A stretch of 37,109 bases of DNA, from the NCBI GenBank assembly GCA_929200455.1, contig CAKMZR010000001.1, forward strand, positions 1 to 37,109. Reading direction: 5' to 3'. Below are positions 15,601 through 29,770 of the stretch, piece after piece. The notes beneath the pieces were generated by a model. It did no database searches. It worked only from the letters and a program-made list of their open reading frames with translations, and was not told the DNA's origin. Positions within the stretch are counted from its first letter, which is position 1, and every line of letters starts with the position of its first letter. A program made the position numbers and the translations under genes. Source of the DNA: an uncultured Alphaproteobacteria bacterium (GTDB lineage: Bacteria; Pseudomonadota; Alphaproteobacteria; CAKMZR01).

Positions 15601-15629
15601 TTGACACGTACACCAAAAAGTGGTAGAAG
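15601..15629 (+). promoter_or_regulatory. Candidate sigma70-type promoter (TTGACA-17 nt-TAGAAG with TGn extended -10 context)
   Basis: Perfect -35, 17-nt spacer ending GTGG as in the early cassettes, weak -10. Sits directly after the holin stop. Confidence 0.4.
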
Positions 15630-15630
15630 A

Positions 15631-15707
15631 GGTTTGTGGGGATCGTAAATTCCTATGCTTGTGACGGCAAATCCTCTCGGGGATTGCTTTAAACGATCCC
15701 CACAACC
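15631..15707 (+). ncRNA. Structured RNA element (13-bp GC-rich stem enclosing a second hairpin), function unknown
   Basis: 15634-15646 pairs perfectly with 15693-15705. Inner stem AATCC/GGATT around 15670-15685. Non-coding; lies between the candidate promoter and the tRNA. Confidence 0.4.
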
Positions 15708-15713
15708 ATATGT

Positions 15714-19942: not shown

Positions 19943-19972
19943 TTGACAAGGGTGGCTGGGGTGTGCTAATTT
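19943..19972 (+). promoter_or_regulatory. Candidate promoter TTGACA-18 nt-TAATTT
   Basis: Perfect -35 and a G-rich spacer like the early cassettes. Lies in the 205-bp gap between the late and early modules. Confidence 0.45.
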
Positions 19973-19979
19973 GTGAGCG

Positions 19980-20027
19980 GAGGGTTGCGTTTTGCTTTTT
20001 CTGACCAATTCGTTTTTCGCAACCCTC
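19980..20027 (+). other. 10-bp stem hairpin (GAGGGTTGCG / CGCAACCCTC) with 28-nt U-rich loop
   Basis: Read directly. Begins at the predicted start site of the 19943 promoter and has no following T-run. Confidence 0.6.
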
Positions 20028-20041
20028 ATACCTCCCATCAT

Positions 20042-20141
20042 AAAAAATGCATTTTATTCAAAAAAAGAATTGACAAAGTAAAATGCGGGCGGTATCGTCA
20101 TGGCGTTGAGGGGGAAACAAAAACAGAAAGGTCAGGTAATA
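20042..20141 (+). promoter_or_regulatory. Early promoter+leader cassette, copy 1 (-35 at 20070, -10 TATCGT at 20093)
   Basis: TTGACA-17 nt-TATCGT, then TGAGGGGGA...GAAAGGTCA...ATG. Aligns with five other copies. Confidence 0.75.
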
Positions 20142-20699
20142 ATGGTACAGGAATTTGAAAGTAAAGATGAGTTGAAGGCGTATCTCGACGAGATTGTCCC
20201 TTTTTATTACAACGACGGCGGGCGGTCGGAATATTTCAAGGCGAAAGGCGTCGGCGATTGCGTTTTGAGGGCGTTGTGCATTGCCACGGGGAAGAATTAC
20301 AAAGAGGGGTATAATGAGTTGAAGAAATATTGTAAAAATCCTTATCCGATACGGAGGCAGACCGAAAAGCATTGTAAAGAGTTGGACTCGTGGAAAAAAG
20401 ATGCAAAAACTTTAGTGAGGGATGGTCTCAGCGACAAGGTGGGGTTGCATTTTCTGCAGTTGTGGAGTGGTGGGAAATTCGTCAAGACGGGAAAGACCAC
20501 CGTTTGTGATCCGAAATTGCAAAAAGGTGTACACGTTTTGTATTTGAGAAAGCATTGGGTGACGGTAGTTGATGGGGTCTGGTTGGATTCGTGGGATAGC
20601 AGAGTGAAAACACCCTGCGTTGTACCAGGTATAGGCATTTTGAACTGGCGGGAGCCAGTAATCAAGCGAGTTATGACTTGGGTTGGAGGAGAAGTGTGA
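20142..20699 (+). CDS. Early protein, possible papain-like Cys/His peptidase fold
   Basis: ATG 20142 follows the cassette (ORF-track start 20100 lies inside the leader). Candidate triad GDCVLRA ... KHWVTVVDG ... LDSWD. Function is a weak guess. Confidence 0.55.
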   Translation: MVQEFESKDELKAYLDEIVPFYYNDGGRSEYFKAKGVGDCVLRALCIATGKNYKEGYNELKKYCKNPYPIRRQTEKHCKELDSWKKDAKTLVRDGLSDKVGLHFLQLWSGGKFVKTGKTTVCDPKLQKGVHVLYLRKHWVTVVDGVWLDSWDSRVKTPCVVPGIGILNWREPVIKRVMTWVGGEV

Positions 20700-20980: not shown

Positions 20981-21246
20981 GTCAGAGAGAAGAAGTTTTG
21001 AAGAGGTTTGAAGACCTCCAGAAAAAAATCAAAGAAGTTAATGCGGGCATACAGCAGAAGGATTGGTTGATTTTAGAGATAGATGCGGCTGGGTTTTCTT
21101 CTGAAGACAAAAATTCATCAGTCGATGTGATGTGGCAAGGTGAGGTGGTGGGGACAATAGTGGTGAGGTGGGTAAAGGACGTTGACTATTGCTACGTTGA
21201 ACCAGACTTCACAAAAAAAATGAATAATCTTCAAAAAAGTTGTTGA
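20974..21246 (+). CDS. Hypothetical early protein
   Basis: 90-aa ORF whose 3' end (..KKMNNLQKSC) runs into cassette copy 2. Confidence 0.55.
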   Translation: MLGQREEVLKRFEDLQKKIKEVNAGIQQKDWLILEIDAAGFSSEDKNSSVDVMWQGEVVGTIVVRWVKDVDYCYVEPDFTKKMNNLQKSC

Positions 21247-21312
21247 CAGTGCAGAATAGGGGTGGTAATGTAAGGTCATGAGGGGGAGAAAAACAAACGA
21301 AAGGTCAAGCAA
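21213..21312 (+). promoter_or_regulatory. Early promoter+leader cassette, copy 2 (-35 at 21243, -10 TAATGT at 21266)
   Basis: TTGACA-17 nt-TAATGT with a TGn context and the conserved leader. Confidence 0.8.
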
Positions 21313-21630: not shown

Positions 21631-21916
21631 GAAGTTCAGGGTGAACAGCGACTACCAAATAAAAGTGGCGGAGGCTGTGTTGAAGTTTTATCATAGGCGG
21701 ATGATCGAGGAGACGGGGGGCATCGACAACGCAATCATGGTGTTCATTTTTGATACAAAAACGGAGATGTGGACAATGAATATTGCCTTTTTGTTGGCAG
21801 ACGGTAGAAAAGTCAACGTCCGACCAATGCGATTCCGTGAGGGGTGGCACGGCGTGGATCAGGTTGCATCTTTGAATGTCAATTACCCACCGCAAAGCAA
21901 CCTTGCGTTTGTCTGA
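21614..21916 (+). CDS. Hypothetical early protein
   Basis: ATG 21614 with AGAGGTGAAA upstream (ORF-track start 21533 overlaps the previous gene extensively); 100 aa. Confidence 0.5.
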   Translation: MQINLKKFRVNSDYQIKVAEAVLKFYHRRMIEETGGIDNAIMVFIFDTKTEMWTMNIAFLLADGRKVNVRPMRFREGWHGVDQVASLNVNYPPQSNLAFV

Positions 21917-21917
21917 G

Positions 21918-22244
21918 ATGAAAAGACAACCAATCGTCAGGACCCTTTTTCCTTATGTAGGAGGAAAAAGCAAGGCATTAAAACACATCATCGACTACCT
22001 CCCTCAAGAAGGCAGAGTGATTTCACCGTTTTTAGGGAGCGGCAAGATTGAATTTGTACTCGCCAAACGCGGCGTTGATGTCTACGGCTATGATGCGTTT
22101 CCTGAACTTGTAAACTTCTGGTTGTGCGTGAAAGAGGACGCGGAGAAGGTTTCCGATTTGGCAGTTGGTCTGGGATTTCCTAACAAAGAAAAGTTTTTGC
22201 AGATAAAACGCGATTTGGGGGATTTTAAGCAGAGGTTATTGTAG
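21918..22244 (+). CDS. dam: DNA adenine methyltransferase (Dam/D12 class), N-terminal fragment
   Basis: LFPYVGGKSK and SPFLGSGKIEF (AdoMet-binding region motifs). Ends at TAG 22242. Confidence 0.7.
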   Translation: MKRQPIVRTLFPYVGGKSKALKHIIDYLPQEGRVISPFLGSGKIEFVLAKRGVDVYGYDAFPELVNFWLCVKEDAEKVSDLAVGLGFPNKEKFLQIKRDLGDFKQRLL

Positions 22245-22263: not shown

Positions 22264-22632
22264 TTGACTGAAAATTGGGCAGAGAGAATAAAGAGTTTTT
22301 CCTTTCCTCATAATTTACATGTGAAACACCAAGATTTTATAGAGACGTTGTCAGGTCATTCTGGTGAGTTTTTTTATTGTGACCCTCCGTACTATAAAGG
22401 CGGCGGTTATTATGGGGTGAATGGCGAATATTGCAACGGTTTCAACCACGAGATGTTGCGTGATTTGTTGTCGAAAGAGGGGCTGTGGGTGCTGAGTTAT
22501 GGCGATTGTGAGGAGGTGAGAGATTTATATACCAATTTCAGGTTGATTGAGTTGAAAATACCATACGGAAACAGAGGGCAGGTAGGCAGAGAACTTTTGA
22601 TTTTCGGTGACGACGTCAGGTTTCTATTATAA
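22264..22632 (+). CDS. dam: DNA adenine methyltransferase, C-terminal fragment in the +1 frame (frame open from 22207)
   Basis: Catalytic DPPY motif (FFYCDPPYY). No independent ATG or SD; the ORF-track start is TTG. Confidence 0.65.
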   Translation: MTENWAERIKSFSFPHNLHVKHQDFIETLSGHSGEFFYCDPPYYKGGGYYGVNGEYCNGFNHEMLRDLLSKEGLWVLSYGDCEEVRDLYTNFRLIELKIPYGNRGQVGRELLIFGDDVRFLL

Positions 22633-22729
22633 AAAATGAATAATCTTCAAAAAAGTTGTTGACACAGCAGAAGAGGGGTGGTAATGTAAGGGCATGAGGG
22701 GGACAGAGTAAAGCGTAAAAGGTCACATT
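22631..22729 (+). promoter_or_regulatory. Early promoter+leader cassette, copy 3 (-35 at 22659, -10 TAATGT at 22682)
   Basis: Same architecture; the leader is more diverged (TGAGGGGGACAGAG...AAAAGGTCA). Confidence 0.75.
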
Positions 22730-24462: not shown

Positions 24463-24567
24463 AATAAAAATGAATAATCTTCAAAAAAAGTGTTGACAAT
24501 GCTCTTTTTCTGGGCTATCCTGCAAATGTTGAGGGGGAGACAAACAAAAAAACGAAAGGTCAAAATC
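24463..24567 (+). promoter_or_regulatory. Early promoter+leader cassette, copy 4 (-35 at 24493, -10 TATCCT at 24516)
   Basis: TTGACA-17 nt-TATCCT, then TGAGGGGGAGACAAAC...GAAAGGTCA. Confidence 0.7.
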
Positions 24568-24843
24568 ATGACAGTTTTTAAAGTTAAGTCAAAAGAAGCC
24601 TCGCACCGCTATATGGGGGCTGGCGAGGTGTTTTTTATCACGCAAGACGACGAGGTTGTTGACTTGGTGTACACGGAGAGGCAGAATCACTTTCCTCTCC
24701 GAAATTTCACCTATACAGACACGCGGGCTATGGGCGATGAGGATTGGTCAATGTTTGTTAATTCTGTCCTGGACGATTGGAAAGAGGCAGGGCATGAAGT
24801 CAAGACGGGCATGGCGGGTTCTTACGAGGTGACAGAAATCTAA
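24568..24843 (+). CDS. Hypothetical early protein
   Basis: ATG 24568 is at the cassette-defined start position (the ORF-track start 24490 reads through the promoter); 91 aa. Confidence 0.6.
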   Translation: MTVFKVKSKEASHRYMGAGEVFFITQDDEVVDLVYTERQNHFPLRNFTYTDTRAMGDEDWSMFVNSVLDDWKEAGHEVKTGMAGSYEVTEI

Positions 24844-28275: not shown

Positions 28276-28596
28276 ATGAGTATATTTAAGAAGCTGTTCA
28301 AAAAACTACTGCCAGACCCCAATAGGATTGATTTTCTTGAACATACCTTTAAAGAGGGTATGGCGTTTTTAGAAATAAAATATAACCTTGAATACAACCT
28401 TAAGACGGGTAAGATGAAGTTGGGGTTGAGTTCAAGGACGGACGGGACGACCGACTTTACGGATAGGGAGGTGTATCTTATACAAAAACTTTTCGCACAA
28501 TGTATCATAAGAAATAGACAAGAAGATGTGGGGGCGATGCGTCTTAAGGTTGAGAAGTGCGGCGATGAGGATAAAGAGGAGAGAGTGTTGCATTAA
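28276..28596 (+). CDS. Hypothetical early protein
   Basis: 106-aa ORF ending at cassette copy 5. Confidence 0.55.
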   Translation: MSIFKKLFKKLLPDPNRIDFLEHTFKEGMAFLEIKYNLEYNLKTGKMKLGLSSRTDGTTDFTDREVYLIQKLFAQCIIRNRQEDVGAMRLKVEKCGDEDKEERVLH

Positions 28597-28693
28597 AAAA
28601 ATGCATTTTATTCAAAAAAAGAATTGACAAGGTGAAATGCGGGTGGTAATGTAAGGTCATGAGGGGGAGAAAAACAAACGAAAGGTCAGATAA
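28597..28693 (+). promoter_or_regulatory. Early promoter+leader cassette, copy 5 (-35 at 28624, -10 TAATGT at 28647)
   Basis: Upstream part matches copy 1; the -10 and leader are near-identical to copies 2 and 6. Confidence 0.8.
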
Positions 28694-29666: not shown

Positions 29667-29770
29667 TGATAAAAAAATGAATAAAATGCAAAAAAGTTGT
29701 TGACACAGCAGAACGGGGGTGGTAATGTACAGTCATGAGGGGGAGAAAAACAAACGAAAGGTCAGAAATC
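29667..29770 (+). promoter_or_regulatory. Early promoter+leader cassette, copy 6 (-35 at 29700, -10 TAATGT at 29723)
   Basis: Same architecture as the other five copies. Confidence 0.8.

Follow-up and report, generated by a model that had tools for sequence, protein, structure and literature searches.

A conserved leader with a Shine-Dalgarno-like block at the predicted transcript 5' end, shared by six promoter cassettes of a tailed-phage contig

What keeps the same two short blocks of leader sequence in place behind six promoters of one phage, when the reading frame that runs through them differs from copy to copy? The question arises from a stretch of DNA of 37,109 nucleotides (the window), in which a preliminary description made from the sequence had pointed to six cassettes whose similarity continues past the -10 element towards the start codon of the gene. 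All six leader copies were found at the places given for them. The window corresponds to the entire contig C1 of an assembly of 1.8 Mb in 302 contigs, and is a complete-looking tailed-phage genome with all long genes on the + strand, among them those for a GpA-type large terminase, a lambda-type portal, a tape measure, a helicase, and a VapE-type primase. The contig also carries a D12-class adenine methyltransferase in two pieces, with one ORF for the N-terminal half (21876-22244) and another for the C-terminal half (22264-22632), each of which matches PF02086.

The remaining contigs belong to a deep-branching alphaproteobacterium, the RpoC of which finds its best matches in Alphaproteobacteria and is at most 68% identical to that of any of 185,579 species representatives; a search for relatives of the assembly returned genomes of the same class alone, none of them closer. 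From the binning and the shared strand G/C skew, we infer that this bacterium is the host of the phage. The skew on the coding strand is about +0.4 or -0.4 for host genes and +0.29 for the phage, and a comparison of the contig with the rest of the assembly gave no DNA matches, CRISPR-like or other. The host skew is extreme and its sign depends on the gene (contigs C5, C9, C43, C26, and C76, and others), so that the excess of G over C would track the DNA strand rather than the coding sense. Such strand skew is unusual for an alphaproteobacterium, and the + strand of the phage is alike in this respect (30% G, 16% C).

The six cassettes are of the sigma-70 type and can be aligned over ~100 nt. 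All have the same order on the + strand: an A-rich upstream region, TTGACA, a 17-nt spacer, the -10 element, and a discriminator of 7-8 nt, followed by a leader consisting of block 1 (TGAGGGGGA, beginning at 20107, 21279, 22695, 24530, 28660, and 29736), a spacer of 11-16 nt composed of A, C, and G, block 2 (AAAGGTCA), another 4-7 nt, and the ATG. Four copies have TAATGT, preceded by TGG, as their -10 element; the remaining two have TATCGT and TATCCT, one each. In the first cassette, the core promoter (20070-20098; TTGACA, 17 nt, TATCGT) is followed by a predicted leader at 20105-20141, with block 1 at 20107-20115, an A/C spacer at 20116-20126, block 2 at 20127-20134, and the ATG at 20142. The second cassette, which holds the copy first reported, has its core promoter at 21243-21271 (TTGACA, 17 nt, and a TGG-TAATGT extended -10) and its predicted leader at 21278-21312 (block 1 21279-21287, spacer 21288-21299, block 2 21300-21307, ATG 21313). 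The third precedes a SprT-like gene, with the core promoter at 22659-22687 and the predicted leader at 22694-22729 (block 1 22695-22703, spacer 22704-22717, block 2 22718-22725, ATG 22730). The fourth has its core promoter at 24493-24521 (TTGACA, 17 nt, TATCCT), with a promoter spacer unrelated to those of the other copies, and its predicted leader at 24528-24567 (block 1 24530-24538, spacer 24539-24554, block 2 24555-24562, ATG 24568). The core promoter of the fifth (28624-28652) is a mosaic, like cassette 1 in its upstream half and like cassette 2 in its downstream half, and the predicted leader spans 28659-28693 (block 1 28660-28668, spacer 28669-28680, block 2 28681-28688, ATG 28694). The sixth, finally, has its core promoter at 29700-29728 and its predicted leader at 29735-29770 (block 1 29736-29744, spacer 29745-29756, block 2 29757-29764, ATG 29771). 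These coordinates refine the preliminary description in some details: the A-rich tract that it placed between the blocks is present, with a range of 11-16 rather than 11-15 nt; the ATG does lie close behind the second block, 4-7 nt after GGTCA instead of 5-7 nt; and the fourth gene starts at 24568. In the A-rich upstream region, cassettes 1 and 5 carry a perfect palindrome, AAAATGCATTTT (20042-20069 and 28596-28623), at the position of which the other four have TGAATAAT(C)TTCA, such that there are two upstream types and one leader.

The conservation is concentrated in a few segments. When the copies were compared pairwise (15 pairs), with segments split at fixed anchors, the -35 hexamer, the 9 nt of block 1, and the 8 nt of block 2 were identical in 15/15 pairs, while identity ranged over 3-6/6 positions for the -10 element, 1-7/7 for the discriminator, 4-15/17 for the promoter spacer, and 4-12/12 for the A-rich tract, the length of which also varies (11, 12, 14, or 16 nt). 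The composite TGAGGGGGA-N(11-16)-AAAGGTCA occurs six times on the + strand of the contig, not once in the other 301 contigs, and not once in a reversed-pattern control; TGAGGGGGA by itself was observed 11 times against 0.69 expected, and AAAGGTCA nine times against 1.96 expected. A profile search with nhmmer yielded no host copies of the cassette or its leader, and the TTGACA-N17-TANNNT sites of the host have no G-rich start region.

Part of this similarity could be a matter of descent. Recombination among the copies does occur, given that cassette 5 is a mosaic of cassettes 1 and 2 and that the three leaders at 21279, 28660, and 29736 are identical, for which reason we count four independent leader variants. 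It might accordingly be supposed that the leader is functionless and similar merely through recent copying or gene conversion. However, cassette 4 has 4-6/17 promoter-spacer and 1-2/7 discriminator positions in common with the others and still retains 17/17 block positions, and since it has diverged elsewhere with its blocks intact, simple recent copying offers no explanation. In cassettes 1 and 4 alike, the promoter spacer, the discriminator, and part of the -10 element have drifted to 25-60% identity with the 17 block positions unchanged, and indels are confined to the region between the blocks. We consider a functionless leader highly improbable. By this comparison, the conservation shared by the leaders is real and selected.

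For block 2, the function can be read from the usage of the host. In the interval 3-20 nt upstream of the first ATG of 1,118 long host ORFs, the Shine-Dalgarno (SD) words with the greatest enrichment were AAGGA (7.1-fold), AGGAA, AGGAG, AAAGG (4.0-fold), and GAAAG (3.4-fold). In the host, AAGGA, AGGAG, and AAAGG peak 11-16 nt before starts, with AAAGG beginning 12-16 nt before; the corresponding distance to the ATG in the six leaders is 12-15 nt. The block thus combines the SD type preferred by the host with the distance preferred by the host, and because its AAAGG sits where the AAAGG and AAGGA words of the host peak, GAAAGGTCA, with GAAAGG inside it, is recognizable as the ordinary SD of the first gene of each early operon. 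The assembly lacks the 3' end of the host 16S rRNA, but the SD words of the host are compatible with the canonical 16S tail, and GAAAGG is predicted to pair with the extreme 3' end of that tail at -7.6 kcal/mol (-4.4 kcal/mol in the UAAAAGG copy). The invariant TCA that follows GAAAGG has no anti-SD pairing.

Block 1 is placed differently. It starts 30-31 nt from the -35 element in all copies, and it begins 8-9 nt after the -10; the promoter-proximal position had been recognized correctly, and the offset of 7-8 nt given for it now becomes the 8th or 9th base. While the offset from the -35 and -10 elements is thus constant within 1 nt, the spacer that separates it from block 2 ranges over 11-16 nt. 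In 6/6 copies the 7th base after the -10 is a purine (four times A, twice G) with a T behind it, so that the predicted RNAs begin AUGAGGGGGA or GUUGAGGGGGA, with predicted leaders of 35-40 nt and with block 1 (UGAGGGGGA[G]) at about +2 to +11 of the predicted transcript. Since block 1 lies on the predicted transcription start, it would form the initial transcribed DNA and, in the RNA, the 5' end. That block 1 coincides with the predicted transcription start and that block 2 is the SD of the gene are the two features that the preliminary description had missed.

The same description had reported an upstream ATG at the leader's 5' edge, and it is borne out in every copy: open and in frame with the gene at 20100, 24526, and 29735, out of frame at 21278 and 28659, and closed by a stop after five codons at 22694. 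It had concluded that selection acts on nucleotides rather than on a protein, and we agree, because the frame in which AGG GGG is read changes with respect to block 2 and one copy stops, and because indels occur between the blocks. One might nevertheless imagine that translation starts 5'-terminally, from the ATG or TTG at predicted +1/+2, with either ribosome binding or a short peptide being the functional outcome. Indeed, the predicted start is the A of CATGAGGGGG in four copies, with TTG at that place in the other two; AGG GGG is read in the frame of this ATG or TTG in 6/6; and 5'-terminal AUGs on leadered E. coli mRNAs are known to bind ribosomes (PMC4965119). Against this, the frame relative to the gene differs between copies, one ends after five codons, the products are alike in R-G alone, and such a start cannot explain the conservation. 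Leaderless initiation at UUG is also poor. We therefore hold a 5'-terminal start to be very unlikely.

As initial transcribed sequence (ITS), block 1 fits an established idea. From +1 to +20 the ITS is 80-90% purine, with GG or GA around +5 to +8 and G or A at +4 to +12, and in four copies +3 to +16 is pure purine; the promoters themselves have an invariant TTGACA, a 17-nt spacer, and, in four copies, a TGn extended -10. A purine-rich ITS favors escape from tight phage promoters, GG or GA near +6 being the strongest escape-favoring dinucleotide (PMC5961368, PMC12464699). The T5 N25 and T7 A1 promoters are similar in combining a near-consensus promoter for the host polymerase with an A-rich upstream region and a purine-rich ITS (PMC12464699, PMC5961368), although the effect there is compositional, whereas here an exact 9-mer recurs in six copies. 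Block 1 could accordingly be selected at the level of DNA and transcription only, as the ITS of escape-limited early promoters, with any ribosome binding being incidental. This would account for its being anchored to the -10 and not to the gene, and for the fact that all eight promoters of this type in the contig begin with a G-run, including two that drive non-coding RNAs. On the other hand, the G-run of those two promoters, both of which precede hairpins, may be just the 5' arm of a GC stem, and the literature describes compositional trends and no fixed 9-mer, while in the present case the 9-mer is invariant and the purine-rich spacer drifts. An explanation by escape only is in our view rather unlikely, if the most serious of the alternatives. 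Gentz and Bujard, in 1985, reportedly described T5 promoters as homologous around +7.

As RNA, block 1 stands out by its predicted pairing with the anti-SD. The first reading of the locus had singled out GAGGGGGAG as a strong anti-SD complement lying far from the start codon, and so it is, at 25-29 nt upstream of it. The predicted duplex with the canonical 16S tail amounts to -10.6 kcal/mol for block 1 as compared to -7.6 kcal/mol for block 2, with no affinity between the two. Block 1 is an imperfect SD (G5, not GGAGG), the perfect form being AAGGAGGU. No ATG, GTG, or TTG is found between block 1 and the ATG of the gene in any copy. The 10-mer TGAGGGGGAG recurs within an SD whose distance to the likely terminase start at 403 is 7 nt, from which it would follow that ribosomes of this system accept the sequence as an SD. 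The longest terminase ORF begins ATGAGGGGGAGGAGG at 382; the ATG at 403 is more likely to be the real start, with TGAGGGGGAGGAGG as its SD inside the end of the preceding gene.

The region between the blocks appears to be open. The leaders consist of 72-83% purine and 6-17% U, compared with 23 ± 8% U upstream of 44 other genes, and their spacers are A/C-rich, U-poor, unstructured, and 11-16 nt long. When each leader was folded together with 60 nt of coding sequence, the minimum free energies were weak and unrelated between copies, with no shared structure over block 2 or the AUG; block 1 and the spacer were mostly unpaired in 4/6 copies, in which the mean unpaired probability of the spacer was 0.8-0.94. 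Unstructured C/A-rich tails are known to enhance initiation by standby (PMC5934652), and the leaders resemble the standby sites and C/A-rich enhancers of MS2 coat and tisB (PMC5934652, PMC6690012) in having 11-16 nt of unstructured A/C-rich RNA upstream of the SD. The difference is that those sites rescue a structured ribosome-binding site (RBS) and need no SD-like block, whereas the RBS here is predicted to be open; a single-stranded upstream region is predicted, a sequestered RBS is not.

The folding results also bear on whether the leader could act in nut/put-like antitermination or as a site of RNase processing. A promoter-proximal place common to all early operons would suit either role. 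However, a conserved hairpin, an Rfam match (none for the leader at E <= 1), and terminator-like sites between the cassettes are all absent, and the U-poor leader disfavors RNase E sites, leaving nothing in favor of processing. Both roles had been proposed at the outset, together with a standby or enhancer site and a regulator target; the latter two retain some plausibility, whereas antitermination and processing strike us as exceedingly improbable. The lack of terminators also distinguishes the cassettes from the PeSL cassettes of T4-type phages (PMC2839356, PMC4122927), with which they have in common repeated strong sigma-70-like early promoters, small unknown genes, and signs of recombination: PeSLs contain a stem-loop terminator, while no stem-loop or terminator was found at any of the six cassettes, which instead carry a conserved leader.

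The reading that we favor, albeit tentatively and at somewhat less than even chances, is that the leader is a compact expression module of two parts, each with its own anchor, in which block 1 docks the 30S subunit at the 5' end of the mRNA in the manner of a STAB-SD or standby element. We rank it above an effect on escape only because it is the exact 9-mer, and not a composition, that is kept, and because this 9-mer is the best anti-SD match in the leader. A 30S subunit would dock on the extreme 5' end of the early mRNAs via block 1, and, once docked, might shield that end from 5'-end-dependent decay, a shielding that we propose because the host encodes RNase E and an RNase J homologue. [quoted passage not shown] In this model the transcription start, the host 16S tail, the docking of ribosomes, and the effects on stability and translation are steps that we infer. 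The RNase J-like gene is full length and scores 369 bits, just below the curated cut-off of 400.

Precedents for such an element come from Firmicutes. In STAB-SDs, 30S binding blocks 5'-to-3' decay by RNase J1 (PMC4113751), and examples comprise the cry3A STAB-SD of Bacillus thuringiensis and the polypurine 5' stabilizer of phage SP82 early RNA, for which we rely on Agaisse & Lereclus 1996 and Hue et al. 1995 as cited in PMC3997798 and PMC4113751. As these citing papers present them, the elements are SD-like purine blocks near the mRNA 5' end that are complementary to 16S rRNA and do not initiate translation, and the SP82 element is likewise located on phage early RNA. In the present leader, no start codon follows block 1 before that of the gene, the predicted position is +2 to +11 as judged from the -10, the predicted duplex amounts to -10.6 kcal/mol against the canonical tail (the tail of the host itself being absent from the assembly), and the host has genes for a 5'-end-dependent decay machinery in the form of the RNase J-like protein and RNase E. 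It differs in that STAB-SDs are known from Firmicutes, where RNase J1 dominates decay, whereas the bacterium presumed to host this phage is alphaproteobacterial and has RNase E together with an RNase J homologue, and also in that block 1 doubles as ITS, lies ~25 nt from the true start, and has a stabilizing role that is merely proposed. Block 1, as a 5'-terminal SD-like purine block, would be of a known conceptual kind, in a new sequence and a new host setting.

Several observations weigh against docking. The exact conservation of an imperfect SD exceeds what pairing alone requires, and GGGGG is depleted (0.38-fold) in the SD window of the host. With the true RBS already unstructured, there is no need for a strict standby site. 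Few RNAs are RNase J targets in Rhodobacter (PMC4179960), and for this reason a block to RNase J may matter little in this class. The sequence cannot, moreover, separate docking from promoter escape.

Two further promoters of the same type, which are not copies of the leader, are relevant here as each directly precedes a 5'-terminal hairpin, the other classical way of protecting a 5' end. The seventh promoter (19943-20041, + strand; TTGACA, 18 nt, TAATTT) would give a transcript that begins GGAGGG, locked in a 10-bp 5'-terminal hairpin (19980-19989 with 20018-20027). At the eighth promoter-like site (15601-15712, + strand; TTGACA, 17 nt, TAGAAG), the predicted start is at the foot of the stem of a G-rich 5' hairpin that is very stable (-32.5 kcal/mol) and is followed by a tRNA. 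The stabilities of the two hairpins correspond to z = -3.8 (19943) and z = -4.5 (15601).

The seventh promoter also introduces the possibility that the blocks constitute a site for a trans-acting regulator, either an RNA-binding protein of the phage or host or a small RNA, by which the early genes are switched together. The loop of its hairpin is 28 nt long, U-rich, and antisense to the leader core AAACGAA-A-GGUCAGAAA / AAACGAA-A-GGTCAGAAA at 16/18 positions; with this match, the loop (19990-20017) is the best antisense match of the contig to leaders 5 and 6, and its pairing with the cassette leaders surpasses that with 44 other start regions (Mann-Whitney p = 0.0007). A regulator would also explain why 9 + 8 nt are exactly invariant, including the TCA that is unpaired with the anti-SD. 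The signal from the loop is, however, mostly compositional, and since 31/400 composition-matched shuffled loops perform equally well, we regard the pairing between loop and leader as a lead only. Many G-rich coding windows pair as well in a sliding scan, the RNA has no terminator between the seventh promoter and cassette 1, the early proteins yielded no domain for RNA binding or regulation, and the variable distance between the blocks argues against a single rigid bipartite site. We judge a trans-acting regulator unlikely. Even more doubtful is the combined scheme, in which the phage would tag its early mRNAs with a 5' ribosome-docking block while the loop of the seventh-promoter RNA pairs with the A/C spacer plus the SD. 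Pairing of the CCUCCC tail of the same RNA with block 1 was considered and rejected, as the leaders are not among its 25 best targets. The anti-SD-like CCTCCC occurs three times on the C-poor + strand, where about one occurrence is expected, at 20031, 21998, and 23723, each in a different early transcription unit.

Could relatives of the phage show how the leader evolves? The exact composite leader pattern has no match in the viral, genome, and metagenome collections, and BLAST searches with the early region and with one cassette against 50,697 phage records gave nothing significant. The terminase and helicase have no close relatives, merely distant matches at 23-33% identity; the closest relative of the helicase among 5.8 billion proteins is ~30% identical, and temperate phages, organized differently, provide the two best helicase contexts. 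By these searches, the phage is an orphan, with close relatives absent from every collection searched.

A relaxed pattern, TTGACA-N17-TANNNT-N7/8-TGAGGGGGA, matched 22 viral stretches, as against some 5 chance matches in a rough prior estimate that assumes the size of the collection. About 6/22 are unrelated singles, and 16/22 form one GC-rich family related to the Actinoplanes phage phiAsp2. This family has a conserved promoter, also with TAATGT as its -10, followed by GUGAGGGGGAC, GCCCCC (as part of a 5'-terminal hairpin), an SD, and an ATG. The promoter (contigs L102-L123) is highly conserved as TTGACACTTCACAGTCAAGCCTGTAATGT-N8-TGAGGGGGAC(A)GGCCCCC and occurs as two matches inside one stretch in three cases, e.g., L105:303-348 and 823-868; GAGGGGG is the 5' arm of the start-site hairpin, with the SD and ATG downstream. 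In the 6-kb stretch of the phiAsp2 record that was examined, no promoters are annotated. The resemblance is a parallel rather than a homology and is partly forced by the search pattern, but it presents the same block in the same place, acting as 5' structure in another group of phages. A separate viral contig, L107 (13.7 kb, AT-rich), has three copies of GGGGGAG at 2881, 4601, and 6926, each set in AT-rich sequence with TATAAT -10-like motifs nearby; two of the three precede an AT-rich stretch and an SD-like purine run, and an ATG follows the copy at 2881. It may be an independent instance of the same leader design.

If block 1 does dock ribosomes, SD-like 5' stabilizer or standby elements would not be limited to Firmicutes and their phages, and the 40-nt leader would provide a portable element for alphaproteobacterial expression systems. 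Were the pairing with the seventh-promoter RNA to hold as well, the system would represent a Gram-negative counterpart of STAB-SD in which one phage RNA shuts off a whole early class. If the role in escape alone holds, the cassettes would reflect an ordinary strong-promoter design. In either event, the leader offers a natural case in which promoter escape and 5'-end ribosome binding, both vested in the first 12 transcribed bases and as a rule confounded, may be told apart.
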